Below, in pieces: positions 1 through 14,054 of a DNA stretch of 64,000 nucleotides. Position 1 is the first letter of the stretch; each line of letters begins with the position of its first letter. This stretch comes from an uncultured Acidobacteriota bacterium. Lineage in GTDB: Bacteria > Actinomycetota > Acidimicrobiia > Spongiisociales > ZC4RG35. The notes beneath the pieces are model-generated. The model was not told where the DNA came from. It was given only the letters and a program-made list of their open reading frames with translations, and ran no database searches. The stretch spans positions 214,575 to 278,574 of the forward strand of contig CAVRHE010000014.1 in the NCBI GenBank assembly GCA_963720925.1. Direction: 5' to 3'. The position numbers and the translations under genes are program-made.

Positions 1-2465
1 AGGAGGTCGTCGTCGCCGGCGAGACGAATCGCCTCCTCGACATGCTCCAGCGCCTCTTCGTGGTCCGGTGTTACTACCGCGAGGATGTTTCGTACCCGGG
101 ACATCTGAGCCGGGTCGTTCTCCTTCTCGGCGGCCTCCCTGGCTCTCTCGGCCATGGCCGCCGCCTTGGTCCCGTCCCCGGTTCGGTACCCGAGGAGCGC
201 CCAATCGGCGAGCACGGCTGCCGGGGCCGGATGGTTCGCGATTGAACGCTGGAAGTGCTCTTCGGCGTCGTCGAAACGGCCGAGCAAACGCTCGACCTCC
301 CCGGTCCGATGCTCGATGACACCGATCGATCCGGGGCCGGCGTGAGACGCGGCAATGGTCAACTCACGTCGGGCGCGGTCATATTCGCCGGCGGCCATGG
401 CGAGCTCGCCAAGGGCGAGGCGGGCTCCCTCGATGTCGGGGTCATCCAATGCAAGAGCCGTCTCGTAGAACTGGATCGCGGAGTCGTTGGCGAACACGGA
501 ACGCGCCAGATCGCCGGCCAGGTGGTACCACACTGTGGCTTCAGGGTCCCCTGCAGCCCGATACTGGCCGGCGACGGCGGCGGCGAGCCGGGCATCGGAT
601 CGGGCATATGGCCTCTCGGAAAGTGCCCGAGCGGCTCGGCGATGGAGCAGACGACGCCTGACCATCGAGGTCGTCTCGTAGGTGACTCGTTCGAGGGCAT
701 CGAGGGTGAAGCTGAGCCCGTCGGACTCGGGAATCTCTCGCAGCAGACCTGCGGCGACCAGTTCCTCGACCGCCTCCACCACCTCCTCTTCGCTTCGCCC
801 GCTCGTCTCCCGGAGGAGGTTTGCGTCACAGATGCCGTTGAGCGCGGCGGCGGCCGTGAGGATCTGCCGACTGAGGTCACCAATCTCCAGCAGCCGCGCC
901 TCCATGTATCGAGCCATGCCGGGGGTGGATGGAAGGCTGTCCCCGTCGGAGGTGAGTGCTTCGTTGACGAGCAGGGGGACACCCCCGGTCTTCTCCCGCA
1001 ATCGCCTCGCTGCGTTCTCGTCGCCTCCCAGGAGGGGGATCAGGTGCTGGACCGTGAGGGGCCGAATTGCGACCGATTGATCCGCCGCCGTCATCATCTC
1101 GGCCACTGCGGGGTGCAGCTCTTCCTCCGTCCTGGCTGCCACGACCATGACCATGGGCATCTCCGAGATGCGACGCGCCAAATACGAGAAGAGCGCAGCG
1201 GATGAAATGTCCATCCATTGCGCGTCGTCCAGGATGATCAAGATCGGTCGTTCCCGGGCCAGGATGGAAAGGACCGTGTGGATCCCCTCCAGCAGCCGCA
1301 GCTCGCCAAAGCGGTCAGGGGTCTCGTCCTTGGCAGGAGCGAATCCCGGCGCGAGCCTGCCAAGCTCGTTCATGGCCCATTCGGGGATCTCTGCCCGCAA
1401 CGCATCGACACGAGCGGTTGCACCGCCCAGAACCTGGGTGGCCACCCCATAAGGCAAGGACTGCTCGTTACGGAAAGCGCGGCCGATCAGGACATCGCGG
1501 TCCCCGTGCGCGAACGAGGCCACCTCTTCGAGAAGACGGGTCTTCCCCATCCAAGGGGCACCGGTCATCGCGACGACCACACCGCTTCGGGCCATGCTGC
1601 TCCGCAACGCCTCCTGGAGCTGCTCGAGCTCGGACTCACGATCGATGAGGTCGGGGTGGGTCTGACGTCGAGCCGGGATCTCTGCCTTGACCCTTCGCGG
1701 GGCACCCGGGGCAGGAGGGAGGTCTTCATCGAGGATGGCCTCGTAGAGCTCGGTCGTTTCCTCGAGTGGAGCCACGCCGAGCTCCTGATCGAGGACGGTC
1801 ACACAGTTGCGATACGCCTCGATCGCGCCGGGCCGGTCACCGGCCCAGGCGTGGAGAAGCATGAGGAATCGGTGCGCCGGTTCGTGCAACGCGTCGAGCT
1901 CGATCCATTGGGTGACCGCGTTGATGGCGGCGGGGTACTCGCCCGCGGCGGCCAAGGCGGTCCCCAACCGATGGAAGGCCTCGCCGATTCGGATCCTCGT
2001 CGACTCGGCGACGCTTCTCACCCAGTCATCGAATTCCGGTGAGGCCTTGACGGAGAAGCCTTCGAGGAAATCGCCCCGGTAGAGATCGGTGGCTCGCTGC
2101 AGATGAGGGATGCATCGGTCGCAGACATCGCGCCGGTCGTGGCCGTGCTCACTCGTCGCGTCCAGCTCGCGGCCAAGAGTGTCCAAATCCGAAATGACCT
2201 CGCCCACGAGGGTCACGAGATTTCGGTCGGCCTCGATGAGGTCGGTTCCGGTTGCCCCTCTAAGGGCTGACAGAGTCCGACGCAGAGTGGCCCGTGCCCG
2301 CTCCTGTGCTGCGTCGGCCCAGAACAGGCCGGCCAGGGTGTCTCGGCTGGCCGATTTCTCGACAACGAGGAAGGCGAGAAGAGCGATCGCCTTGCGGGTA
2401 TCGACCACGACCGGACGTCCGGAGATGGACACGTCGGGTTGGCCAAGAAGTTTGATATCGAGCAT
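1..2465 (-). CDS. SARP/AfsR-type regulator (DNA-binding + BTAD N-terminus, central AAA/NB-ARC ATPase, TPR-like C-terminus); the 3' end runs off the window
   Basis: The reverse frame is open from the window edge to ATG at 2465-2463. It is absent from the ORF track because no stop lies in the window. My translation begins MLDIKLLGQPDVSISGRPVVVDTRKAIALLAFLVVE...LYRGDFLEGF...WIELDALHEPAHRFLMLLHAWAGDRPGAIEAYRNCVTVLDQELGVAPLEET (BTAD-like). It continues with GAPWMGKT (Walker A-like) and ILDDAQWMD (Walker B-like), then TPR-like repeats. The + strand ORFs 255-1205 and 1218-2042 are its antisense shadows. Confidence 0.8.
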   Translation of the reverse strand, partial: MLDIKLLGQPDVSISGRPVVVDTRKAIALLAFLVVEKSASRDTLAGLFWADAAQERARATLRRTLSALRGATGTDLIEADRNLVTLVGEVISDLDTLGRELDATSEHGHDRRDVCDRCIPHLQRATDLYRGDFLEGFSVKASPEFDDWVRSVAESTRIRIGEAFHRLGTALAAAGEYPAAINAVTQWIELDALHEPAHRFLMLLHAWAGDRPGAIEAYRNCVTVLDQELGVAPLEETTELYEAILDEDLPPAPGAPRRVKAEIPARRQTHPDLIDRESELEQLQEALRSSMARSGVVVAMTGAPWMGKTRLLEEVASFAHGDRDVLIGRAFRNEQSLPYGVATQVLGGATARVDALRAEIPEWAMNELGRLAPGFAPAKDETPDRFGELRLLEGIHTVLSILARERPILIILDDAQWMDISSAALFSYLARRISEMPMVMVVAARTEEELHPAVAEMMTAADQSVAIRPLTVQHLIPLLGGDENAARRLREKTGGVPLLVNEALTSDGDSLPSTPGMARYMEARLLEIGDLSRQILTAAAALNGICDANLLRETSGRSEEEVVEAVEELVAAGLLREIPESDGLSFTLDALERVTYETTSMVRRRLLHRRAARALSERPYARSDARLAAAVAGQYRAAGDPEATVWYHLAGDLARSVFANDSAIQFYETALALDDPDIEGARLALGELAMAAGEYDRARRELTIAASHAGPGSIGVIEHRTGEVERLLGRFDDAEEHFQRSIANHPAPAAVLADWALLGYRTGDGTKAAAMAERAREAAEKENDPAQMSRVRNILAVVTPDHEEALEHVEEAIRLAGDDDL

Positions 2466-2571
2466 GGAGGAGAACCTGAGTGGTGCGGTGCCGAAACGCT
2501 AATTCCACCGTTACGGCTATGAGAAGTTCGTCTCGCCTCGGAACGGTAAGGCCTGTTCCGCATCGGAGGCG

Positions 2572-2599
2572 CGTTTCACTTACGTAACGCTTCACTACC
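2572..2599. promoter_or_regulatory. Imperfect direct repeat CG(T/C)TTCACT, two copies 16 nt apart, in the divergent SARP/array intergenic region
   Basis: cgtttcacttac (2572-2583) and cgcttcactacc (2588-2599) flank a TACGTA palindrome (2581-2586), about 15 nt upstream of ATG 2614. Any function is speculative. Confidence 0.2.
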
Positions 2600-2613
2600 A
2601 ATCTGTGCCCTGA

Positions 2614-3813
2614 TGAGGGAAGGTGAGGGAGCAACCGCTAACGCCGGCAACGCGGCCGTGCTCATTCTGGCGATCGTCAGCTCGTGGCATTGACTGGATT
2701 TGTAATGGGCGGGTTGGTGGGTTGGTGGGGGCCACTGGAGGCGGATTCGACACGCTGTCCTGAACCGGGGACGATGCTTTGTTCCTCGTGCTGGGTCTAT
2801 TGATCCTGTGGAAGGCCGCGGGCAACCGGATCGGTTGGATGTTCACCGCCATCGGGTTGATGTTCCTCGGTGCGGCGATCGCCGGCGGCATTGGCCGTTC
2901 GGGGATCGTCGCCTTTGCAGCGATTGGTGGTGCCCTCTGGCTCGGCTGGATCGTTCTGATGGGAACCCTGGTGTTGTGGTTCCCGACGGGCCAGGTCCCG
3001 AGCCGACGCTGGCTATGGCTGCAGTGGGTCGGCTTCGGTCTCCTGGCTGTGACCTTGTATCACCTACATCTTCACTGAGCAGGTCTGTGTCGATGGCTCG
3101 GATTCGGGTGGCTGTTTGGTCTGGGCCACCAACCCGATTGGCATCGGCGGGGTATCCCAACCCGGAATATGGGTGGTTGGCCGGGCCCATCTTCGCCTTC
3201 TACCCGATCTTCATGGGTGGAGCGGTCCTATCCCTGTTCATGCGGTACCGGAAAGCCGGGACCATCGAGCGACTCCAGTTGAAGTGGTTCCTGTTCGCCT
3301 GCGCCTCCTTCGTGCGGCCGCTTGGTACCGAGATCATCTTGGAGGCGTTGGAGTGGACAGCCGCCGTTCCTCGTCGACGCCTGGATCTCATTGTCCATCT
3401 TCGCCATCCCGATTGCCGCCACCCTGGCGATCCTCCGATACCGCCTCTATGACATTGATCGAATCATCTCGCGGACCGTTTCCTACGCCATAGTCATCGC
3501 CACCCTCGCCGCGGTCTACGCGCTGGGCCTGGCCGGGCTCACTTCCCTGCTCGACACCGAGTCCTCACTCGCCGTGGCCGCCGCCACGCTGGCCGTCGCC
3601 GCCTTGTTCAACCCATTGCGAAAACGCGTCCAGGGGTTCGTCGACCACCGCTTCAACCGCACCCGATACGACGCCGAGCGGGTGATGACCCAATTCACCG
3701 GGTCCCTCCGCGACGAGGTCGATCCAAACACCGTGCTCTCCGGCTGGGTGGGTGTCGTCTCCGAAACCATGAGACCGGTGGCTTCCGGCGTGTGGCTCAG
3801 GAGTGAGAGCTGA
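2614..3813 (+). pseudogene. Array paralog P1 of the polytopic membrane sensor-module family, disrupted by several frame changes
   Basis: Family motifs are spread over all three frames. Frame 1 (2779-3078) has LILWKAAGNRIGWMF. Frame 2 (~3060-3150) has VWATNPIGIGG. Frame 3 (~3155-3355) has FMRYRKAGTIERLQLKWFLFACASF. Frame 1 again (3322-3813) has ILRYRLYDIDRIISRTVSY...FNPLRKRVQGFVDHRFNRTRYDAERVM...GWVGVVSETMRPVASGVWLRSES. The N-terminus (ATG 2614, MREGEG...AVLILAIVSSWH) is also interrupted by stops. Confidence 0.6.
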
Positions 3814-3845
3814 GCACCCGCCAATCCCGTTTCACCGCCTGGCTG

Positions 3846-5006
3846 ATGTGGGTGTCGGGCTTGGCCATGATCGCCCTGGCTGCGGTTCTCAACGAGGTGA
3901 ACCCCCCACTGCCTGGCCAACCGCAGGAATCGACCGTCGAAGGGCTGATCTGGCTTTCGACCTGGATCGGCTTTGGCCTGGTCGGTGCCCTGGTCGTGTC
4001 GAGTCGTCCCGGGAATCGAATCGGGTGGCTGATGTGCGGGATCACGTTTGGCCTCGGCCTCGACATTTTCGCTGTCGAATACTCCCAATTCGCTCTCATC
4101 ACCCAACCGGGACGCTGGCCGTTCGGCGAGGCGGCGGCGTGGGTGGCGACATGGGGCTTTCTCCCAGTGGTGGCACTCGTAGTTGCTCTCGTCGTGATGT
4201 ATCCGTCAGGGACTCCGAGCCGACTTGGTCGCTGGGTCCTGCGGGGCTTTCTCTTCGTGATCTCGATCGAGGCGTTGGTGTATGCGCTTCGTCCCGGCCC
4301 CGTACAAGGGGGCGCTCCGCCAGACAACCCACTCGGCATTTCAGGCATTCGTCCCCTCCTGGACCCGGCTACCGAATGGCTGGGCACGCTTCTCGCGACG
4401 ATCGCCATCATCGCTGCCGTCGACGCGGTCCTGCGATTCCGCCGGTCCTCCGGTGTCGAGCGGCTCCAATTCCGCTGGTTCGTCTTCGCCATCGTGTCTT
4501 TCCCGATCATGTTCCTAGCCGGGAACTTCCTCGAATCGATAGTCGGAATCGAAACATTCGACCCTGTCGTGGTGATATTTGCCGTCTGGGGTAATGGCAC
4601 CGCGGTGGCCATCGGAGTCGCAATCACCCGCCACGGCCTCTACGAGATCGATCGTGTGATCTCCCGCACTGTGGGCTACGTCTTGGTCGTCGGCGTGGTG
4701 GCGGCCGCATACCTGGCGGCTGTGACCGGGCTGACCTCGATCCTGCCCGACCAGTCCCAGCTGGCGGTGGCCGGTTCCACACTCGCCGCCGCGGCGCTGT
4801 TCAATCCGGTGCGGAAGCGGGTGCAGGGCATGGTGGACCGGCGCTTCAATCGTTCCCGTTACGACGCCCAACGGGTCATGGACCGATTTGCCGGATCGCT
4901 GCGCGACCAGGTCGACAGTGGGGAGGTACTCGACGGCTGGGTGGGTGTGGTGGCCGAGACGATGCAGCCTGCGTCGGTGTCGGTCTGGGTCAGAGAGCCG
5001 GCGTGA
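3846..5006 (+). CDS. Array paralog P2: polytopic membrane protein with the conserved C-terminal RYRLYEIDR / FNRSRYDA / VWVRE module
   Basis: Intact 386-aa ORF with about 8-10 hydrophobic segments. Family motifs present: RPGNRIGWLM, RFRRSSGVERLQFRWFVF, TRHGLYEIDRVISRTVGY, FNPVRKRVQGMVDRRFNRSRYDAQRVMDRFAGSLRDQVD, GWVGVVAETMQPASVSVWVREPA. The TGA stop overlaps the GTG start of P3. Confidence 0.85.
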   Translation: MWVSGLAMIALAAVLNEVNPPLPGQPQESTVEGLIWLSTWIGFGLVGALVVSSRPGNRIGWLMCGITFGLGLDIFAVEYSQFALITQPGRWPFGEAAAWVATWGFLPVVALVVALVVMYPSGTPSRLGRWVLRGFLFVISIEALVYALRPGPVQGGAPPDNPLGISGIRPLLDPATEWLGTLLATIAIIAAVDAVLRFRRSSGVERLQFRWFVFAIVSFPIMFLAGNFLESIVGIETFDPVVVIFAVWGNGTAVAIGVAITRHGLYEIDRVISRTVGYVLVVGVVAAAYLAAVTGLTSILPDQSQLAVAGSTLAAAALFNPVRKRVQGMVDRRFNRSRYDAQRVMDRFAGSLRDQVDSGEVLDGWVGVVAETMQPASVSVWVREPA

Positions 5007-6130
5007 GAAAGGCTTGGCTCACGTTGGCCCTGATCGGGGCCACGGGCGGCATCCTCGCCGGGGCTCTGGGGCCCGCATTGGCGGAAGGAGACCGCCTATG
5101 GCCGATCGCTTGGATCCTCTGGGCGCCGGTTGGGTACTTGATACTGCTCAAGCGGCCCGGAAACGGGGTAGGCGCGGCGGCCCTCTTGACCGGTCTCATG
5201 TGGGGAGCCGGCTTCGTCATGCTCACCCTCAGTGTCATCGTTCCGAGCGAGTCGGCCGCCGCCTGGCTCGAACTGGGGGACAGCACTCTCGGCGGGCTGC
5301 CCTGGCTGGTGATGGTGTGGCTGTTGCTCGTCTTCCCTTCCGGGGCCTATGAGGGTAAGGCCGAGCGCGTCATCGGCTGGTTCGTCATCGGGTTCGCGAC
5401 CCTTGCCTCCGCCGCATTCGCGCTCGATCCTGCCCCAATGGAGGACTCGGGCTTGCCCAGCCCACTATCGGTCCCAGAGCTGGGGAATATCACCTCGGTG
5501 ATCACGAGTGATGGAGGGTTCGTCATGGTTGCCGCCTTCATCCTCGCGGCCGTCGTGATGGTGGTCTTCCGATGGCGGCGGAGCGCCGGCGTGGAACGAC
5601 TCCAGTACCGGTGGCTCTTCATGGGCGTGTTCTCGTTCTTCCTCATCATTGCCGCGGGCAGCCTCGGGCTCATCCCCGAGGACGGCTTGACCGAGTGGTT
5701 GTGGTTGCTGGCCGGAGGCGCCATCCCGACCGCCATCGGCATCGCGGTGCTCCGCTACCGCCTTTACGAGATCGACCGTCTGATCTCCCGGACGGTGACA
5801 TATCTATTGGTGGTTGGTGTGCTGGCGGCGGTGTTCTTTGGGGTCGTGACCGCGGCTAGTTCGCTCCTCGACACGGAAAGCGACCTGGCGATCGCCGCTT
5901 CCACCCTGGCCGTGGCTGCCATGTTCAACCCGGTGAGGAAGCGGGTGCAGACGTGGGTGGACCGGCGGTTCAATCGATCCCGCTACGACGCCCAACTTGT
6001 CGTGGACGAGTTCGCCGGGTCCCTCCGCGACCGGGTCGACAGCGACGAGGTGGTCGACGGATGGGTCGGGGTTGTCGCCGAGACCATGCAGCCCGCTGCG
6101 GCCGGTGTGTGGGTGCGGGAGTCACGATGA
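5003..6130 (+). CDS. Array paralog P3 of the membrane sensor-module family
   Basis: Intact 375-aa ORF with the same motif set (RPGNGVG, RWRRSAGVERLQYRWLF, LRYRLYEIDRLISRTVTY, FNPVRKRVQTWVDRRFNRSRYDAQLVV, GWVGVVAETMQPAAAGVWVRESR). GTGA overlap with P2 and ATGA overlap with P4. Confidence 0.85.
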   Translation: MRKAWLTLALIGATGGILAGALGPALAEGDRLWPIAWILWAPVGYLILLKRPGNGVGAAALLTGLMWGAGFVMLTLSVIVPSESAAAWLELGDSTLGGLPWLVMVWLLLVFPSGAYEGKAERVIGWFVIGFATLASAAFALDPAPMEDSGLPSPLSVPELGNITSVITSDGGFVMVAAFILAAVVMVVFRWRRSAGVERLQYRWLFMGVFSFFLIIAAGSLGLIPEDGLTEWLWLLAGGAIPTAIGIAVLRYRLYEIDRLISRTVTYLLVVGVLAAVFFGVVTAASSLLDTESDLAIAASTLAVAAMFNPVRKRVQTWVDRRFNRSRYDAQLVVDEFAGSLRDRVDSDEVVDGWVGVVAETMQPAAAGVWVRESR

Positions 6131-7168
6131 AGGCCAAACTCGTCGCGACCCTGCCTTGGGCGCTCTTGATCGTGGGCATCGTCGCCTGGGGGATGGCAAT
6201 TTGGTTCGATCGCGGCTCGGACGAAGTGACCGGGCCTCTCGACAAGCTATGGGCCCTGTCCTTCTTCGCCTTCCCGATCGTTGGCGTGTTCCTTGCCCGG
6301 CGGATCCCGGCGAATGCGGTGGGCTGGCTCTTCATAATCGGCCCGTTGCTGGTGGGAGCGGGAGTCGCCCTCCAGGAGATGTCCGAGGCCCTCGGCTTCC
6401 CGGGCTTGGTCTCCCCGTCCGAGTATGTCTTCGATGCGGGCTTGCTTGCCCTGTTCTCGTCATTGACCCTTTTCCCCGACGGGCGCTACCGACGGGCGTG
6501 GTGGGCGTGGGCTCATGCCGTCGCCATCCTGGTCCTGAGCATGGTGGCGGGCAGCTTCATTGCAGTGGTCCTGGTTCTGGGTCTCCTGCCACTCGTGTAT
6601 CGGTCGATCAAGGGCTCCTCGTTGGTTCGCCGTCAGATCGCCGGACCGCTCGTGGTCCTGATCCTCGGTGTGGTATCGCTGGTAGCCGTCAACGTTGTGT
6701 TCGGCGGCACGGCTCTCGCCCAAACCTCGATCACGGCGATAACGATGCTGATCACTATCGGTGTACCGGTGTCGATCGCCATTGCGATCACCCGGTACCG
6801 GCTCTACGAGATCGACCGGCTCGTTTCCCGGACCGTCAGCTATTTGTTGGTGGTCGTGTCTGTTGGGGGCGGTCTTCGTCGGTGTCGTGACATTGGCGGG
6901 CTCGCTGCTGCAGACTGATAGCGATCTGGCGATTGCCGCGTCAACTCTCGCGGTCGCAGCACTGTTCAACCCCGTTCGCAAGAGAATCCAGAACGGGGTC
7001 GACCGTCGATTCAATCGATCCCGCTACGACGCCCAGAAGGTGATGGACTACTTCTCCGGCTCGCTGCGGGACCAGGTGGACCCGGTCGGTGTCATCGAGG
7101 GCTGGGTGGGAGTTGTCTCCAACACCATGCAGCCCGCTTCCGCCGGAGTCTGGGTGAGGGAGCGATGA
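6127..7168 (+). pseudogene. Array paralog P4 of the membrane sensor-module family, with one frameshift near 6855-6862
   Basis: ATG 6127 (MKAKLVATLPWALLIVG...) reads in frame 1 to ...ITRYRLYEIDRLVSRTVSYLLVV. The conserved continuation LLGAVFVGVVTLAGSLLQTDSDLAIAASTLAVAALFNPVRKRIQNGVDRRFNRSRYDAQKVM...VWVRER is in frame 2 (ORF 6761-7168). The internal ERLQ.KW motif is degenerate (YRSIKGSSLVRRQIAG). Confidence 0.75.
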
Positions 7169-8316
7169 GAAAGATGTCACCACTCAGGGCAGTGATTGTC
7201 GTGTGGACCCTTCTGATGGTTGGCGCGGCAATCGCTTGGCTGACGTTCCCGGGTGTTGTCGACCCAATGATCGGGATCCTCTTCGCCTCGGTTTGCTCGG
7301 TAGTGGTAGGGGGGATACTCACCGTGAGAGTGCCGGGCAACCTGGTCGGTCCCCTCTCGCTGATCGCCGGCTCGGCATGGGTGCTCTACCTGTTCGGGAG
7401 GGGGTACGCGACGCTCTCTCTCGCATCGAGCGATCCCCTGCCGCTGGCATATTTCCTGGGCTGGCTCGGATCGTGGTCCGGCGCGTTGTTCCTCCTCGGG
7501 GTCTCGGCGCTGATCCTCTGTTTTCCCACCGGGAAGCCGGTCGGATGGTGGCGAGTGATCGCGCTTGGACCAATTGTGGGTGCGGTGTCGACCCTGATCG
7601 GGGCCGTCCTCCTCTGGGGGCTTCCACTGGAGACCCTCATCGAAGACGAACTAGTCAGCCAGACCCCGTGGTATCCCCTGGTCGACGCCGGTTTCGTCCT
7701 CGGATTCGTTTCCGTCCTCCCAGCGACGTTGTCGGTCGTGGCTCGATTTCGCAAAGCCGGGTTGGTCGAGCGGCAGCAGATCAAGTGGCTGCTGGCGGCA
7801 ACCAGCATCCTCGCTGTGGCCTACCTGGTCGGAGCGATCACGGACGATTCCAGCGAGGCGGCCTGGTGGGCCGTGTCCCTAGGTGTGGCGGCGATCCCGA
7901 TCTCGATCCTTTTTGCCGTTCTGCGCTACCGCCTCTACGACATCGATCGGATCCTTTCTCGAACCGTTTCCTACGTAATCGTGATCGGCTTGCTCGGGGC
8001 TGTTTATGCGTTGGGCTTGACCGCATTGACCTCGGTTCTCGATGCGGAATCACCATTGGCCGTGGCCGCTTCTACTCTTGCCGCTGCCGCCCTCTTCAAT
8101 CCTCTGCGAAGAAGGGTCCAGGCAGTGGTGGATAGACGATTCAACCGATCGCGCTACGACGCGGAACAGGTGATGGATCAATTCTCCGGCTCCTTGCGCC
8201 AGGACCTCGACCCGGACACGGTGGTCGAGGGCTGGATGGGAGTGGTGTCCGAGACGATGCACCCGACATCGATTTCGGTATGGGTTCGTAACGATTTCGG
8301 GACGGTCGAGAGATAG
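7165..8316 (+). CDS. Array paralog P5 of the membrane sensor-module family, immediately upstream of the phosphatase gene
   Basis: Intact 383-aa ORF with motifs RVPGNLVGPL, RFRKAGLVERQQIKWLL, LRYRLYDIDRILSRTVSY, FNPLRRRVQAVVDRRFNRSRYDAEQVM, GWMGVVSETMHPTSISVWVRNDFGTVER. ATGA overlap with P4. TAG stop at 8314-8316, only 10 nt before ATG 8327 of the next gene, which is in another frame. Confidence 0.85.
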   Translation: MRKMSPLRAVIVVWTLLMVGAAIAWLTFPGVVDPMIGILFASVCSVVVGGILTVRVPGNLVGPLSLIAGSAWVLYLFGRGYATLSLASSDPLPLAYFLGWLGSWSGALFLLGVSALILCFPTGKPVGWWRVIALGPIVGAVSTLIGAVLLWGLPLETLIEDELVSQTPWYPLVDAGFVLGFVSVLPATLSVVARFRKAGLVERQQIKWLLAATSILAVAYLVGAITDDSSEAAWWAVSLGVAAIPISILFAVLRYRLYDIDRILSRTVSYVIVIGLLGAVYALGLTALTSVLDAESPLAVAASTLAAAALFNPLRRRVQAVVDRRFNRSRYDAEQVMDQFSGSLRQDLDPDTVVEGWMGVVSETMHPTSISVWVRNDFGTVER

Positions 8317-8326
8317 AAATGGGGCC

Positions 8327-9916
8327 ATGGTTCAGCTGATGAGACGGCGCAGAGCCGACGAAGAAACGCCAGAGGGCGACGAAACCCCGATCCCGGAGTC
8401 GAAGACCCGGTTGATCGAAGCCATCCCGATCCCGATTGGGGATCCGTTGGAGACTCTTCTCCTTTCGTCGGGTGGGCCCGTTGTGTTGCGTGACCTCGAA
8501 CTGGAGTCGGAGACCGTGGACATCCTCCGGGAAGCCGGCGTCGAGCTCATCGTGCCGCTGATCGGCCAGGGCGAGCTCCTCGGTGCCCTCTACCTCGGCC
8601 CCCGGCTCTCCGATCAGCCCTATTCGACCGATGATCGGAGACTTCTCGGCAGCCTCGCCTCCCAGGTGGCGCCGGCGATGAAGGTTGCCCAACTCGTCCG
8701 CGAGCAGCAGGTCGAGGCGAAGGAGCGGGAACGCATCCATCAGGAGCTCCAGGTCGCGGCCCTCATCCAACAGACCCTCCTCCCGAAGGAGCTGCCTGCG
8801 ATCGCCGGCTGGCAGGTCGACGCCTTTTACCGGCCGGCACGGGCGGTTGGTGGCGACTTCTACGACTTCATCGCTCTCGACGATGGTCGGCTCGGCGTGG
8901 TCATCGGCGACGTAACCGACAAGGGCGTGCCTGCCGCATTGGTCATGGCGACCTGCAGATCCATGCTGCGCGCTGCAGCCCAACGTCACAGCTCTCCATC
9001 GGCGGTCCTGGCCGATGTCAACGATGGCCTGGTGCCGGAGATCCCACCGGCCATGTTCGTGACCTGTCTCTACGCCATCATCGATACCGATGCCGGGGAG
9101 GTGGTGTTCGCCAACGCCGGCCACAACCTTCCCTATGTGAGGCACGATGGCGGTGTCCTCGAGCTGAGGGCCACCGGCATGCCCCTCGGGCTGATGCCGG
9201 GGATGGGTTACGACGAGACCAGGTACGAGATGTCCGCGGGCGAGGTGATGGTCCTGACCAGTGACGGGATCACAGAGGCTCACAACGCCGAAGGTGAGAT
9301 GTACGGGTTTTCCCGTCTGATGGACCGAGTCGCCCGGAGGCCGATCAACGACGACGTCCTCAACGCCGTGGTCACCGAACTGGAGGCGTTTACCGGTGAG
9401 GGCGCCGAGCAGGAGGACGACATCACGCTCGTCGTCGTCAAGCGGACAGCTTCGGCTCAGGCCTCAGCAGAGACATTCGAGGAGCGACGCCAGATCATGG
9501 CCAAGTTCGCGATACCCAGCGAGGAAGGCAACGAGCGCATCGCCATCGCCAAGGTATCGGCCGCCGTCGAGGAGCTCGGTCTCGAGCCGGCACGGCTGGA
9601 GCGGCTGAAGACTGCCGTGGGCGAGACCGTGATGAACGCCATCGAGCACGGCAACGAGAATCGTGCCGAGCTCGACGTAGACGTCCAGGTTTGTGCCAAC
9701 GAGCAATCGGTCAGTGTTCTGGTCAGCGATCAGGGTGGCGACCGGTTGATCCCGGAGGCGACTGTGCCCGACCTCGAGGCCAAGCTCGCCGGAGAGCAAA
9801 CCCCTCGCGGCTGGGGCCTTTTCCTGATCGAGAAGATGGTCGACGAGGTGCGCTCGACCAGTGACGGTGCAACACACACGATTGAACTCGTGATGAACCG
9901 GAGAGGAGTTTCCTGA
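8327..9916 (+). CDS. Partner-switching enzyme: partial GAF-like N-terminus + PP2C/SpoIIE-type Ser phosphatase + C-terminal RsbW/SpoIIAB-like HATPase (Ser kinase) domain
   Basis: 529-aa ORF. The N-terminus is IPIPIGDPLETLLLSSGGPVVLRDLELESETVDILREAGVELIVPLIGQGELLGALYLGPRLSDQPYSTDDRRLLGSLASQVAPAMKVAQL (GAF C-terminal-half-like). PP2C motifs: AVGGDFYDF, GDVTDKGVPAAL, LTSDGITEA, EDDITLVVV. HATPase motifs: ETVMNAIEHGN (N box), SDQGGD (G1), RGWGLFLI (G2). Confidence 0.85.
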   Translation: MVQLMRRRRADEETPEGDETPIPESKTRLIEAIPIPIGDPLETLLLSSGGPVVLRDLELESETVDILREAGVELIVPLIGQGELLGALYLGPRLSDQPYSTDDRRLLGSLASQVAPAMKVAQLVREQQVEAKERERIHQELQVAALIQQTLLPKELPAIAGWQVDAFYRPARAVGGDFYDFIALDDGRLGVVIGDVTDKGVPAALVMATCRSMLRAAAQRHSSPSAVLADVNDGLVPEIPPAMFVTCLYAIIDTDAGEVVFANAGHNLPYVRHDGGVLELRATGMPLGLMPGMGYDETRYEMSAGEVMVLTSDGITEAHNAEGEMYGFSRLMDRVARRPINDDVLNAVVTELEAFTGEGAEQEDDITLVVVKRTASAQASAETFEERRQIMAKFAIPSEEGNERIAIAKVSAAVEELGLEPARLERLKTAVGETVMNAIEHGNENRAELDVDVQVCANEQSVSVLVSDQGGDRLIPEATVPDLEAKLAGEQTPRGWGLFLIEKMVDEVRSTSDGATHTIELVMNRRGVS

Positions 9917-10257
9917 TGGAGAGCGTGTTCGAGGCAACGGTGACCAGGACCGATGATGGATCCGTCGTGGTCATGAGCGGGACCGTGAACCGGGCAGCCA
10001 AGCAGGCACTGGAAGCCGCCTACGAGGAGGCGGTGGAACAGCCGGGCCGGGTTCTGATGGACTTCCAGTCCGTGGACTACATCAACTCCACTGGAATAGC
10101 GGTCATCGTGGGCGTACTGGCGATGGCCCGGGCGGAGGACCGTGAGGTGGGGGCCTTCGGTTTGACCGACCACTACCGGGAGGTGTTCAGCATCACCCGT
10201 CTGTCCGATTTCATGACCATTTACGACGATGAGACGGCTGCAGTCGCGGCCGGATGA
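9916..10257 (+). CDS. STAS-domain anti-sigma-factor antagonist-like protein (RsbV/SpoIIAA family), copy 1
   Basis: 113 aa. The start overlaps the phosphatase stop (TGATG). It has STAS hallmarks: VLMDFQSVDYINSTGIAVIVG, with a Ser at the position corresponding to the phosphorylatable Ser of SpoIIAA, and ...FGLTDHYREVFSITRLSDFMTIYDDE. Confidence 0.8.
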   Translation: MESVFEATVTRTDDGSVVVMSGTVNRAAKQALEAAYEEAVEQPGRVLMDFQSVDYINSTGIAVIVGVLAMARAEDREVGAFGLTDHYREVFSITRLSDFMTIYDDETAAVAAG

Positions 10258-10270
10258 GGAGAGGAGCATC

Positions 10271-10621
10271 ATGCCGACAGCCAATGTGACGATGAGCGTG
10301 CGGGAGGCCGCGCCCCGGGTACGGGTCATCGACATCGAAGGGGAGATCACTGGGTTTTCCGAGAAGGAGATCAACGCCGCTCATGAGGAAGCGGCCGAGG
10401 GCGGCGTCGACGCTGTCGTCCTCAATTTCGAGGGTCTCGAGTACATGAACAGTGGCGGGATCGGGCTCCTGGTCACCACCCTGATCAGGGCTCAGCGCAG
10501 TGGCCACCGTCTCATGGCCTACGGCCTGACTGACCACTACTGCCAGATCTTCTCGCTGACCCGTCTCGACGAGGCCATCGAGATCTTCGACGACGAGCCG
10601 GCGGCGCTCGCGGCCGTGTGA
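10271..10621 (+). CDS. STAS-domain anti-sigma-factor antagonist-like protein, copy 2
   Basis: ATG 10271 is preceded by GGAGGAGAGGAG. The sequence is MPTANVTMSVRE...VVLNFEGLEYMNSGGIGLLVTTLIRAQRSGHRLMAYGLTDHYCQIFSLTRLDEAIEIFDDE, paralogous to copy 1. Confidence 0.8.
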   Translation: MPTANVTMSVREAAPRVRVIDIEGEITGFSEKEINAAHEEAAEGGVDAVVLNFEGLEYMNSGGIGLLVTTLIRAQRSGHRLMAYGLTDHYCQIFSLTRLDEAIEIFDDEPAALAAV

Positions 10622-10640
10622 GACGATTCTTTGAACGGAA

Positions 10641-11852
10641 TTGAGCCCGACCGGCGCAATTGAGTTCACAGAGCAGTCCGGCCGGAGAGCGTTGGGCCGT
10701 TGGGTCCTGCTTGGGCTCCTCGTTGTGGCCGGGGTTGGGCTTTCCGTCGTTCAGCTGACACTGTCAGAGCGTCCCCTCGCGGACGCCTCCCTCGCCTCGG
10801 TCGGATTCCTGATCTACGCCGGAATCGGCGGTCTGATCGTCATACGTCGCAACGGTCATCCCACCGGCTGGCTGTTGATCTTGATCGGTTTGGCGGTGTT
10901 GTGGGCCGACGCGTTCGTTGGGCTTCCGGGAGTCTCCCCGCTGTTCGCCGCTTGGGTGTCGAGTTGGGGCTGGGGTCTGGTGTTCTGCTTGTTCGCGCTT
11001 CTGACGTTGACCTTTCCCTCGGGGCATCTGCCGGCGGGCAAAGGTCCGTGGTCCAGGGCAGGACGTGCCGCCGTATGGGTGCTTCCGATTCTCCTGGTGG
11101 CCACTGCCCTGACCGAGACGTTGAGCGGTGCCGAATCCTCGACCTCGACAGTCAACCCGATCGGGTTTCTCCCCGAGTGGCTCGGTTCTGTCGCTCTTCT
11201 TGGCATCGTGGCCATCCTGCTTGGCGGCGCGGTATCGCTCGTGATCAAGAGGCGCCGAGCAGTCGGCGCAGAGCGGGCCCAGTACACGTGGGTGGTATTT
11301 GCATTCGTGCTGTTGACCACCGCCGTAGTCCTCACGTTCCTCTTTGTCTTCATCTCGATCGGTATCGGCGCAGGTGATCCCGGCGATGACGCCTGGGGGC
11401 CGGCGTACGTGATGATGATCCTGTTTCCACTCTCTTTTGGCGTGGCAGTCCTCCGGTACCGGCTCTACGAGATCGACCGGATCGTGTCCCGGACGGTTTC
11501 TTATGCGCTGGTGGTCGGATTGCTGGCGGGAGCGTTCCTGAGTGTCGTCGCGTTGATGTCGTCTCTGCTGCCAACCGAGTCATCGGACCTGGCGGTGGCC
11601 AGCTCGACGCTGGTCGCGGCTGCCCTTTTCAACCCGCTGCGAAGAAAGGTCCAGGGTGGGGTGGACCGCCGGTTCAATCGCCAGCGCTATGACGCCCAGC
11701 GGGTCATGGACGGCTTCGCCTATTCCCTCCGGGACCGCGTCGACCCCGAAGAGGTGATGACCGGCTGGGTCGATGTAGTTTCGTCGACGATGCAGCCCGA
11801 CTCCATTGGCATGTGGGTGCGAGATGACGACGAAGCAGCCGGTGCTGTCTAG
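10641..11852 (+). CDS. Paralog P6 of the membrane sensor-module family, downstream of the STAS genes
   Basis: 403-aa ORF with a TTG start 19 nt after STAS-2; the exact start is uncertain. Motifs: RRNGHPTGWLL, KRRRAVGAERAQYTWVVF, LRYRLYEIDRIVSRTVSY, FNPLRRKVQGGVDRRFNRQRYDAQRVMDGFAYSLRDRVD, GWVDVVSSTMQPDSIGMWVRDDDEAAGAV. Confidence 0.8.
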   Translation: MSPTGAIEFTEQSGRRALGRWVLLGLLVVAGVGLSVVQLTLSERPLADASLASVGFLIYAGIGGLIVIRRNGHPTGWLLILIGLAVLWADAFVGLPGVSPLFAAWVSSWGWGLVFCLFALLTLTFPSGHLPAGKGPWSRAGRAAVWVLPILLVATALTETLSGAESSTSTVNPIGFLPEWLGSVALLGIVAILLGGAVSLVIKRRRAVGAERAQYTWVVFAFVLLTTAVVLTFLFVFISIGIGAGDPGDDAWGPAYVMMILFPLSFGVAVLRYRLYEIDRIVSRTVSYALVVGLLAGAFLSVVALMSSLLPTESSDLAVASSTLVAAALFNPLRRKVQGGVDRRFNRQRYDAQRVMDGFAYSLRDRVDPEEVMTGWVDVVSSTMQPDSIGMWVRDDDEAAGAV

Positions 11853-13244
11853 CCCTTGAGGGCGGCCCGTGCGGCGTAGTAGCCGCACATCCCGTGCACC
11901 CCTGCCCCGGGTGGGGTGGCCGATGAGCACAGGAAGAGACCCTCGCCGATGCGGTACGGGGCGGTCGCGCCGAGCTGGAAGACCTTTTTCACCCCGAATC
12001 CGCCACCGGCGATGTCGCCCCTGATGTAGTTGGGGTTGTGCGCCTCGAACTGGCCGGCGTTCATGGTGTGCCGCTCGAGGATCAGGTCCCTGAATCCGGG
12101 CGCGAAACGCTCAATCTGTGACTCGATCGCCTCAGTCATGTCGACATCCGAGCCCGATGGGACGTGGCAGTAACCCCAGGCGGTGTGTTTCCCTTCCGGC
12201 GCCCGGGTGGGGTCGAATCTCGACTGCTGCGCGACGAGGACCAAGGGGCGTTCCGGATGCTGCCCGGCGTGGACCTGGTCCTCGGCTTCGGCGACCTGCT
12301 CCCAGGTCCCGCCGACATGGACCGTCCCGGCCTGAGGGCTCCATTCGTCTGCCCATGGGATCGGGCCATCCAGGGCCCAGTCGACCTTGAACACCGCCGG
12401 GCCGACCTTCCACCCCGTCAGCCGGCGCCGGTCGCGAGGACTGACCCGGTTGCCGCCGATTCGAACTGCGGCCCGCGGCATCACGTCCAGCACGACCCCG
12501 CGGTTGGTGGGAAGCTCGTCGAGCGAGCCGATCATGCGTCCGGTCTCGATGCTGCCTCCGCCGTCGACGATGATCTTGGCCAAGGCCTCGGCGATGCGTT
12601 GTGATCCTCCTCGGACCATCGGCCAGCCATACGCATGCGCGGCGACTCCGAAGAGCAACGCCACCCCACCCGTGAGCGGAGAGCTGAACGGGGCGATGGC
12701 GTGGGCGGCCAGACCGGCGAGAACACCGCGTGCCTCCTCCGAGGAGAATCCCGAGGCGATGATCGAAGCCGGTAGGGCCCCCCGAGCTGGCAAGCTTGAC
12801 GAAGCTCCCCGGATTGTCGGGGACCAGCGTCATGGGCCCCAGGAAGTCCTCCATCACCGCATCTGCCGCCTCGACGAGTGGCCCGAAGATTCTGGTGTAG
12901 TGGCGGGCGTCAGGCCCAAAACGATCAGCAGTGGCCTGGACGTCCCTGAGAATGGCACCGGCGCGGCCACCGTCGAGCGGATGGGCGAGGGGGATGGTGG
13001 GATGGACCCACTCCACCTCGAGGCCGAGGTCACGGAAAAACGGCGAGGCGACACCCAGGGGATGGATCGCCGAGCAGATGTCGTGTGCGAACCCGGGAAG
13101 AGTGAGCTCTTCGGTCCGGGTCCCACCACCGATCTCGTCGGCCTGCTCCACGACGAGCACCCGTCGCCCGCGTCTGGAAAGCTCCGCCGCGGCAGAGAGG
13201 CCGTTGGGGCCGGAGCCGACCACAACTACGTCGTATTCGACCAT
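11849..13244 (-). pseudogene. FAD-dependent oxidoreductase of the phytoene-desaturase (CrtI-like) family, with one frameshift near 12778-12795
   Basis: The N-terminal piece is MVEYDVVVVGSGPNGLSAAAELSRRGRRVLVVEQADEIGGGTRT (Rossmann GxGxxG), readable to ...PGSFVKLA. The continuation (L)PARGALPASIIASGFSSEEARGVLAGLAAHAI...GLFLCSSATPPGAGVHGMCGYYAARAALKG is ORF 11849-12793. The frame change coincides with a C6 homopolymer (12778-12783). Confidence 0.75.
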
Positions 13245-13277
13245 GTGCCCCAGATTCTGCCCGAGAGGCGTTACGAC

Positions 13278-14054
13278 ATGGTCACCAGCGACTCGAAGCG
13301 GGTCGGATCCTCCCGTAACGATGGCGGAACGCCCCTCTGGTCAACTGGTGACATCGAAGAAAGGACCGAGTTGACCGAGCCGAGGGACACAGAGAATTGG
13401 GCACAGCCGGTGGACGTCTTCCACGTTGGGGAAGTCGCCGATGGTGCGCGCAAGGGCAACGTGGAGGGTCGCAAACCCACCGGGCCGCTGCAGGGCTTCG
13501 GACAGCTGTGGCAGAAGACGTATGAGGTGCGAATCCCCGGCCCGACGCCGGAAGAGGTCATTGCCACCTGGAAGTCGAAGTTCGGTGAGTTCTGGCCTTC
13601 CTACAACAAGTTCTATGCCCCCGCCGGCGGTATAGCCCCTGGTGAGGTAGCGGTGATCGGAGGCGGTAAAGGCCCGGCCAAGATCACAACCGGAGTCAGG
13701 GTGATCTACGCCGACGAACGCTCATGGTCGTACATGACTCCTGAGGGTCACCCATGGGCGGCCATCATCACGTTCAGCGCCCACGAGGGCGACGACGGGG
13801 CGACCGTAGCCAGGATTCATCTCCTGGTCCGGGCCAACGACCCCCTGTACGAGGTGAGCTTCAAGCTCTACACCTCGCGGATGGAGGACCAGATCTGGAA
13901 CCACACTTTGACCCAGGTCGCAGCGCACTTCGGTGTGGTGAGCCCGGTGGTCGAGTCCAGTGTGCAACTCGTGGACAAGAAGCGCCAGTGGAACCAGTTC
14001 TCCAATATCTACAAGAACTCCGCGCTGCGGACCATGCTCCGCCGGGATCGATAG
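13278..14054 (+). CDS. Conserved hypothetical protein (possibly DUF1990-like)
   Basis: This is the 3' third of the 555-aa ORF 12387-14054; the upstream part is antisense to the oxidoreductase gene. ATG 13278 follows GAGAGG. The sequence ...IYADERSWSYMTPEGHPWAAIITFSAHEGDDGATVARIHLLVRANDP resembles the DUF1990 core from memory only. Confidence 0.5.
   Translation: MVTSDSKRVGSSRNDGGTPLWSTGDIEERTELTEPRDTENWAQPVDVFHVGEVADGARKGNVEGRKPTGPLQGFGQLWQKTYEVRIPGPTPEEVIATWKSKFGEFWPSYNKFYAPAGGIAPGEVAVIGGGKGPAKITTGVRVIYADERSWSYMTPEGHPWAAIITFSAHEGDDGATVARIHLLVRANDPLYEVSFKLYTSRMEDQIWNHTLTQVAAHFGVVSPVVESSVQLVDKKRQWNQFSNIYKNSALRTMLRRDR

Follow-up and report, generated by a model that had tools for sequence, protein, structure and literature searches.

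An array of paralogous membrane proteins and a partner-switching set, composed of a SpoIIE-type phosphatase fused to an RsbW-like kinase and two STAS proteins, form a conserved operon in a 64,000-nucleotide stretch of contig CAVRHE010000014.1 from an uncultured member of the Acidimicrobiia (assembly GCA_963720925.1; hereafter, the window). The six multi-pass membrane proteins, P1 to P6, each carry the same C-terminal module, and the phosphatase starts with a disordered tail and a GAF domain from which the N-terminal part is absent. We propose that the terminal helix and strand of the membrane proteins complete the GAF fold between two chains and that the membrane proteins control the phosphatase in this way, a proposal for which we consider the evidence evenly poised. 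Gene comparisons across relatives show that the split between the last array gene and the phosphatase gene is genuine, old and evolutionarily conserved, and that the operon is not a sequencing artefact.

Organization of the operon

Searches of all six frames of the 64 kb with a regular expression and a hidden Markov model revealed exactly six modules and one partial-GAF gene. The operon comprises the following features, in which L001 designates the locus of the closest relative.

2779-3813, plus strand: P1, array membrane protein with C-terminal module and two frame changes (tblastn, L001 orthologue)
3846-5006, plus strand: P2, array membrane protein of 386 amino acids (aa), ending in ...VWVREPA
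5003-6130, plus strand: P3, array membrane protein of 375 aa, ending in ...VWVRESR, with a 4-bp overlap with P2
6127-7168, plus strand: P4, array membrane protein with one frame change near 6858, ending in ...VWVRER
7165-8316, plus strand: P5, array membrane protein of 383 aa, the last before the phosphatase, ending in ...SISVWVRNDFGTVER
8212-8289, plus strand: P5 residues 350-375, helix 350-365 and strand 370-375, proposed GAF alpha1 and beta1 (AlphaFold2 chimera, Foldseek alignment lengths)
8287-8304, plus strand: direct-repeat DNA box CGTAACG-ATTT-CGGGACG, encoding the P5 tail R-N-D-F-G-T (kept upstream of the phosphatase ATG in 28 loci)
8327-9916, plus strand: phosphatase-kinase fusion of 529 aa (Pfam, homologue lengths)
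8405-8680, plus strand: partial GAF, phosphatase residues 27-118, without alpha1 and beta1 (Pfam, solved structures, AlphaFold2)
8627-8779, plus strand: predicted long helix, phosphatase residues 101-151, from the last GAF helix into the linker toward the PPM domain (AlphaFold2, helix 484-534 of the chimera)
9916-10257, plus strand: STAS protein 1, RsbV-like, of the anti-anti-sigma type (Pfam STAS, 41.4 bits; kept in L001, L002 and L073)
10271-10621, plus strand: STAS protein 2 (Pfam STAS, 46.4 bits; start set by the orthologue)
10641-11852, plus strand: P6, array membrane protein of 403 aa, downstream of the STAS genes, ending in ...MWVRDDDEAAGAV

The 4-bp overlaps extend to P3/P4 and P4/P5, P4 having ATGA overlaps with both neighbours. 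The tblastn pieces of P1 lie in frame 1 at 2809-3060 and 3355-3801, with the middle part out of frame; its L001 orthologue is intact at 399 aa, as is that of P4 at 347 aa. The start of STAS protein 2 is most likely at 10271, as in its 116-aa orthologue, rather than at 10229, the first ATG of the listed open reading frame (ORF).

P5 and the phosphatase are encoded by separate genes

A sequence-only reading of the window had left two explanations for the boundary between P5 and the phosphatase: either the two are one gene broken by an indel, in which case the other array proteins would be truncated copies of its sensor half, or the split is genuine. The P5 stop codon is at 8314-8316 and the phosphatase ATG at 8327 is in the +1 frame. 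A broken gene would be in keeping with the frame disruptions that the window does have in P1, P4 and an FAD oxidoreductase gene, with the phosphatase frame being open for 153 nt upstream of its ATG, and with a database entry (P0253) that bridges exactly this junction and is a frameshifted read-through. Comparative data refute this explanation, whose probability we regard as close to nil, as the start, length, stop and gap are all kept in relatives.

The 120 best phosphatase homologues listed, all from Acidimicrobiia in ENA, JGI, NCBI and Logan assemblies, share 71-94% identity, measure 499-558 aa (mostly about 529 aa, none near 900 aa) and have the MVQLMRRRR start in common. The upstream stop was kept across 27 Acidimicrobiia pairs of a last array gene and a phosphatase gene, and the same stop, a gap of about 10 nt (8-13 nt) and the MVQLMRRRR start recur in 23 of these 27 independent loci; P5 orthologues with the same tail and stop were found in 23 loci. 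In L001 (94% identity, on a 2.7-Mb contig), six array genes, all intact (347-400 aa) and overlapping by 4 bp, are followed by a 10-nt gap, the phosphatase, two STAS genes and another array gene. The same junction is present in L002, at 73% identity. Furthermore, a conserved DNA box and a -10-like TAGAAA sit between the module and the phosphatase ATG.

Rubrobacteraceae also keep the split, with about 100 nt between the two genes. Their distant locus L073 contains at least nine array genes, then a 391-aa gene encoding a shortened GAF and SpoIIE, with a separate HATPase_c_2 gene and two STAS genes downstream. There, too, the phosphatase starts with a disordered tail and a GAF shortened in the same way, and its 120 best listed homologues measure 354-412 aa. 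None of the 240 close homologues listed in the two sets is fused to a module, and a tblastn search of 72,556 plasmids with an in-silico fusion of module and phosphatase gave no match. A genuine split is thus supported at the level of gene structure. The sequence-only reading had also placed both segments side by side in single polypeptides; this is right only in a narrow sense, as one rare fused clade was found (L046 and P0271, described below) and the listed close homologues provided none.

The frame disruptions of the window affect P1 (two), P4 (one, outside a homopolymer run) and the gene for an FAD-dependent oxidoreductase at 11849-13244 on the minus strand, of which L002 has an intact copy (464 aa). 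Either sequencing errors or recent pseudogenes account for them, and the P5-phosphatase junction is untouched by any of them.

Programmed frameshifting to a fused product was also considered and dropped, as no slippery site is evident and the DNA box explains the conserved nucleotides.

The phosphatase carries a shortened GAF domain

Pfam searches identified in the phosphatase a SpoIIE domain (PF07228, 177.9 bits for a cut-off of 25; residues 185-373, covering the full profile length) and an RsbW-like HATPase_c_2 kinase domain (68 bits, residues 400-521). The order of its parts is a disordered N-terminal tail, the GAF without its N-terminal part, a coiled-coil linker, the SpoIIE/PPM domain and HATPase_c_2. 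Features shared with the RsbU type are a PPM/SpoIIE domain and a predicted helical linker, with a STAS substrate and an RsbW-like kinase encoded alongside.

Residues 27-118 align with positions 44-132/133 of the GAF profile, and the N-terminus aligns with positions 44-127/129 of GAF_3 and 64-135/136 of GAF_2, leaving about 43 N-terminal GAF profile positions absent. Solved structures agree, as phosphatase residues 46-126 correspond to residues 64-147 of 149 of the DosT GAF. The earlier observation that the first part of the domain is missing is therefore borne out, and no polypeptide here gave a full-length match to PF01590, PF13185 or PF13492. The sequence previously quoted as the opening of the phosphatase is correct, but it begins at residue 33, after residues 1-32 (MVQLMRRRRADEETPEGDETPIPESKTRLIEA). 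The segment TRLIEAIPIP is a conserved phosphatase segment that precedes the GAF remainder.

The module ends the proteins of a large family

The module, short and cytoplasmic, has the consensus FNPxRxRVQxxVDRRFNRxRYDA...GWVGVVxETMQPxxxxVWVR; its first part, up to RYDA, is a conserved membrane-adjacent helix, after which come one helix and one strand. As had been noticed, all six array proteins stop shortly after VWVR or VWLR, with only 2-9 further residues (P1, SES; P2, EPA; P3, ESR; P4, ER; P5, NDFGTVER; P6, DDDEAAGAV). Over the last ~100 residues the modules are 63-70% identical to that of P2, compared with only about 34-40% for the full-length proteins. None of P1 to P6 matched a Pfam or NCBIfam family, nor was there a GAF match at E<=1.

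A profile of the six modules retrieved 11,514 representative clusters (50% identity, E<=0.001) among 1.84 billion representatives. The module lies within 15 residues of the C-terminus in 141 of the 150 best cluster representatives, within 17 residues in 245 of 246 complete instances from 70 related loci of species-representative genomes, and within 23 residues in all 101 Rubrobacter/Chloroflexi-type relatives of a third set. This C-terminal position is far beyond chance, and the common end boundary seen in the six copies thus extends to the family. Since the module ends the protein, or each tandem unit, in nearly all members checked, P1 to P6 are complete members of a large unnamed family; the view that P1 to P4 and P6 are truncated copies has to be abandoned.

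The longer proteins among these are tandem doubles rather than module-GAF proteins. Four such proteins (P0131, P0134, P0143 and P0243; 917-961 aa) are arranged as membrane domain, module, linker, membrane domain and module. Head-to-tail fusion of adjacent array genes is thus possible, as is a mid-chain position of the module with no GAF behind it. A 5TMR-LYT match was found in one and a HisKA_7TM match in two of 50 family members, and in none of P1 to P6.

About 45 of the 70 loci hold a phosphatase gene, and in most of them an array of 1-13 module genes lies directly upstream on the same strand. The number of copies in the DNA seen ranges from 1 to 13, with 13 module matches in 16 kb of L066 and eight each in L025 and L026, a spread that fits rapid gain and loss of paralogues.

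The module directly precedes the GAF remainder in a rare natural fusion

In locus L046, a single frame (4860-6728) encodes a membrane domain, the module, the GAF remainder and SpoIIE. Directly after the module match (54.8 bits), positions 45-374 of the phosphatase profile are matched (371 bits), the sequence running ...AFQPLRKRVQRGVDRRFYRERYDARQVIDDFAGEAARLVDPTTLEAELVSTVERALRPKSVQLHTGPFSKATRKALASGAAIDL...VLVPLVAGGSLTGVLDLG... and onward into SpoIIE. The same metagenome-assembled genome (MAG) also has a split pair, L010. P0271, an independent JGI fragment with 76% identity, has the same junction (VVHQALSPKSVTLHSGPFTDATTAALASG). When the L046 fusion was aligned with the P5 module and the phosphatase, the single gap corresponded to the P5 tail and phosphatase residues 1-37 only. 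The module therefore occupies the position of the GAF N-terminus in the fusion, with no spacer, which provides a Rosetta-stone argument for a link between the two. The other matches obtained with the L046 junction region as query were stand-alone module proteins (39-63% coverage) that cover one half only.

The reading frame of the L046 fusion gene changes within the N-terminal membrane part (4409-5560 vs 4860-6728; MFD MAG). The module-GAF-SpoIIE junction is unaffected.

Structure prediction of the composite domain

As suggested by the sequence-only reading, P5 and the phosphatase were modelled as a fusion. The AlphaFold2 chimera joined P5 (383 aa) to phosphatase residues 1-160, using an alignment of 101 rows whose register was checked; MAFFT misaligned mixed module-only and phosphatase-only rows, and the use of bridging rows from the window only fixed the alignment. 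The chimera reached a mean predicted local distance difference test (pLDDT) score of 82 and a predicted template modelling score of 0.59. Within the module, helices were predicted at 297-326, 328-344 and 350-365 and a strand at 370-375, with block-mean pLDDT values of 72-86 over the 350-375 stretch. A second strand, of low confidence, is built from the P5 tail together with phosphatase residues 1-3, and the next stretch of the phosphatase (residues 4-28) is disordered. From the phosphatase part come two short helices, only three strands and a helix of 51 residues that extends into the linker. An AlphaFold2 prediction for the phosphatase by itself, made with no alignment, was uninformative (mean pLDDT 35).

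A Foldseek search of the PDB with the chimera returned GAF domains almost exclusively, with template modelling scores of 0.60-0.69 normalised to the target, including those of Lcd1, PDE6, KdpD, DosS and PtsP; its best structural matches are complete GAF domains. The alignments span 164-203 columns against stand-alone GAF targets of 142-173 residues, and this excess in length implies a query insertion of 20-40 columns, for which the disordered stretch of roughly 35 residues between the P5 strand and the GAF remainder is the only candidate. Judging from these lengths, the alignments apparently include the helix and strand of P5. A three-dimensional GAF fold (N-terminal helix, central antiparallel sheet and C-terminal helix) is thus predicted for the composite only, in the form of an artificial single chain. 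The earlier assignment of the module as the first helix and strand of a GAF fold consequently finds support in the fusion junction and in the chimera, and none in sequence profiles.

A direct-repeat DNA box at the junction

An 18-nt direct repeat at 8287-8304, CGTAACG-ATTT-CGGGACG, codes for the conserved P5 tail, RNDFGT(V/L/M)E(R/G). Next comes GATAGAAA, which contains the TAG stop codon of P5; the phosphatase ATG lies 22 nt after the repeat. The consensus of the box is CGTAACG-N4-CGG(G/A)ACG, with heptamers 11 nt apart. It is also found upstream of the phosphatase where the last array gene stops 42-96 nt earlier, a context in which it is non-coding. Its positions in relatives are 9961 and 15139 in L001, 9960 and 13764 in L002, 10752 in L073 and 3136 in L071, and in Rubrobacteraceae CGTAACG-N5-CGTAACG occurs before the phosphatase and before the first array gene.

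Since the box is conserved even where it is non-coding, the conserved tail of P5 is most likely a by-product of a cis-regulatory element, and the low-confidence second strand of the chimera should therefore not be over-read. The box is probably an operator or promoter element, and the phosphatase probably has its own promoter, which would be a further sign of two separate genes.

Proposed mechanism and alternative explanations

In the mechanism that we propose, P1 to P6 would act as sensors. The terminal helix and strand of a membrane protein would dock on the phosphatase's incomplete GAF, so that two chains together make up the fold; docking would order the GAF and the coiled-coil linker helix, and so set the activity of the PPM domain. 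The phosphatase and the kinase would in turn determine how far the two STAS proteins are phosphorylated. It is known that N-terminal sensor domains, among them GAF, signal to PPM phosphatases through coiled-coil linkers, and the action of RsbT on RsbU has shown that ordering of the linker controls the PPM domain, a mechanism proposed to be general for PAS, receiver and GAF inputs (PMC12143880). As the six donors share the same docking piece and have diverged membrane domains, several inputs may converge on, or compete for, one phosphatase. More tentatively, and at somewhat less than even confidence, we suggest a general form of this arrangement: a GAF fold assembled between two proteins, in which the helix and strand of a sensor insert into the incomplete GAF of a phosphatase-kinase, 1-13 paralogous sensors per locus (six here) serve as interchangeable inserts, and one partner-switching module integrates many inputs or is competed for by them.

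Several observations weigh against completion of the fold between chains. The module alone has no Pfam match, and a profile of 70 module sequences had no meaningful sequence match in the PDB, nor did a PDB sequence search with the natural fusion yield anything meaningful for the module. In-silico fusions of module and phosphatase reach back to GAF profile positions 5-7 and gain only 2-3 bits, too weak an effect to carry an argument, and in the L046 fusion itself the Pfam GAF models come in only behind the module, at profile positions 54-57. At the level of profile searches, then, the module is not recognised as part of a GAF. The chimera is an artificial single chain built on an unpaired alignment. 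The natural fusion is rare, with four relatives found, three of which are fragments. TRLIEAIPIP has no counterpart in the natural fusion, and could fill the absent strand position within the phosphatase itself. Finally, among the 11,514 clusters of the module family, some members lie in loci (L070, L071, L033 and L069) whose available DNA shows no phosphatase, and the module may thus have a more general role.

The missing profile link to GAF, the TRLIEAIPIP segment and the terminal position of the module across a very large family, loci without a nearby phosphatase included, speak for a different explanation, in which the arrays and the phosphatase are coupled without any completion of the fold. 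The module would then be a self-contained output or oligomerisation element and the shortened GAF a degenerate domain, either self-sufficient or completed within a homodimer, with coupling taking place through other surfaces, such as the RRFNRSRYDA helix, or indirectly. Such coupling would also suit the finding that the most conserved part of the module is the membrane-adjacent helix and not the helix-strand pair, and that in tandem doubles the module is followed by a second membrane domain and not by a GAF. It does not account as readily for the natural fusion, which puts the module exactly at the GAF N-terminus without a spacer, for the recognition of the chimera as a complete GAF, or for the three strands provided by the phosphatase part of the chimera, too few for a GAF sheet. 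We regard coupling of this kind as a distinct but lesser possibility.

It is improbable that the co-location has no meaning for the GAF, the array proteins having an unrelated role and lying beside a stress-signalling operon by chance, and the likeness of their helix and strand being coincidental: although the array proteins match no characterised family and orphan copies of the module exist, same-strand synteny with 4-bp overlaps is kept across two actinobacterial classes, a natural module-phosphatase fusion exists, and a cis-element is shared between the phosphatase gene and, in L071, the first array gene.

Completion of the GAF between chains, if true, would be a way of wiring many sensors to one effector that has not been described before, and nature would offer here a signalling domain divided within its own fold. 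A family of more than 11,000 protein clusters, abundant in Actinomycetota from soil metagenomes and now lacking an assigned function, would also gain one. Through this locus, the family is tied to a defined biochemical output, namely how far STAS proteins are phosphorylated. If complementation proves wrong, the operon is still a new input branch for partner-switching in Acidimicrobiia and Rubrobacteria.

Neighbouring genes

Two further features flank the operon.

3-2483, minus strand: BTAD-AAA_16-TPR regulator, divergent, clipped at the window edge (Pfam)
13314-13331, plus strand: second direct-repeat box, CGTAACG-ATGG-CGGAACG, 39 nt upstream of the TTG start of a DUF1990-like gene (same place in relatives)

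The same kind of BTAD regulator adjoins the arrays in L001, L002 and the Rubrobacteraceae loci L071 and L072. In both Acidimicrobiia and Rubrobacteraceae, a BTAD-AAA_16/NB-ARC-TPR regulator lies on the strand opposite to the arrays (L001:287-3058, L002:2462-5200 and L071:1-1073), and the L071 copy also has a GerE domain. No OmpR-type DNA-binding or winged-helix domain, sought for a SARP reading of the box, was detected at the N-terminus of the Acidimicrobiia version; that this regulator binds the box is only a guess.

The DUF1990-like gene (13371-14054) has a weak Pfam match (20 bits), and the listed 555-aa ORF at 12387-14054 is an over-extension of it. Together with the FAD/NAD-binding amine-oxidase-type gene (11849-13244, minus strand), it accompanies the arrays and the partner-switching set in both classes (L073:13385-15281), and both genes may be part of the same regulon as the arrays.

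No sigma factor gene was noted among the called neighbours, the remainder of the window not having been searched for one. A promoter scan of 2400-12000 found no sigma-70-type consensus, and an Rfam scan of 8100-8500 gave no match.

Comparison with known systems

Folds completed between chains are known from donor-strand complementation in chaperone-usher pili, split PH domains and split inteins. The arrangement proposed here is alike in idea to donor-strand systems, in that an incomplete beta-sheet domain would be completed by a strand of another chain, here together with a helix; no homology is implied. We know of no such inter-chain arrangement for GAF domains or for bacterial sensor-effector coupling, and full-text literature searches, which were not exhaustive, found none.

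If P5 and the phosphatase are read as one chain, the order of membrane sensor, GAF, coiled coil and output resembles that of LytS/YpdA (5TMR-LYT-GAF-kinase) and PrsK, and the L046 fusion has exactly this order. The PrsK model TIGR02916 matched P6 on positions 4-350 and the phosphatase on positions 405-473, an order that fits a single ancestral architecture, with scores (15.5 and 15.7 bits) that fall far short of the cut-off of 300. Fusions between PPM and 5TMR membrane domains have been described (PMC11109136). Unlike LytS/YpdA and GAF-PPM proteins, however, the chain is cut here inside the GAF fold, and the membrane domains of the window do not match PF07694 (5TMR-LYT) or PF16927 (HisKA_7TM).

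The stressosome of B. subtilis contains several RsbR paralogues with diverged inputs and a conserved output part that serve one RsbU-type phosphatase. The array would likewise connect paralogous sensors with diverged input and conserved output parts to a single phosphatase. RsbR proteins are soluble, assemble with RsbS in a large complex and act through the release of RsbT, whereas the sensors proposed here are membrane proteins and no RsbS- or RsbT-like intermediary is encoded in the locus.

A further parallel is the RsbU/RsbP-RsbV-RsbW partner-switching module of the general stress response type, with which the operon shares a PPM/SpoIIE phosphatase that has an N-terminal regulatory domain connected via a long helical linker, and an RsbW-like HATPase_c_2 kinase and RsbV-like STAS substrates encoded in the same operon. 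In the model RsbU system, a separate partner protein that binds the N-terminal domain switches the phosphatase on (PMC12143880). In contrast, the kinase is fused here to the phosphatase and two STAS genes are present; the activator that we propose is the C-terminal end of any of six membrane proteins instead of a soluble RsbT-like kinase, and it would complete a fold rather than bind a finished domain.

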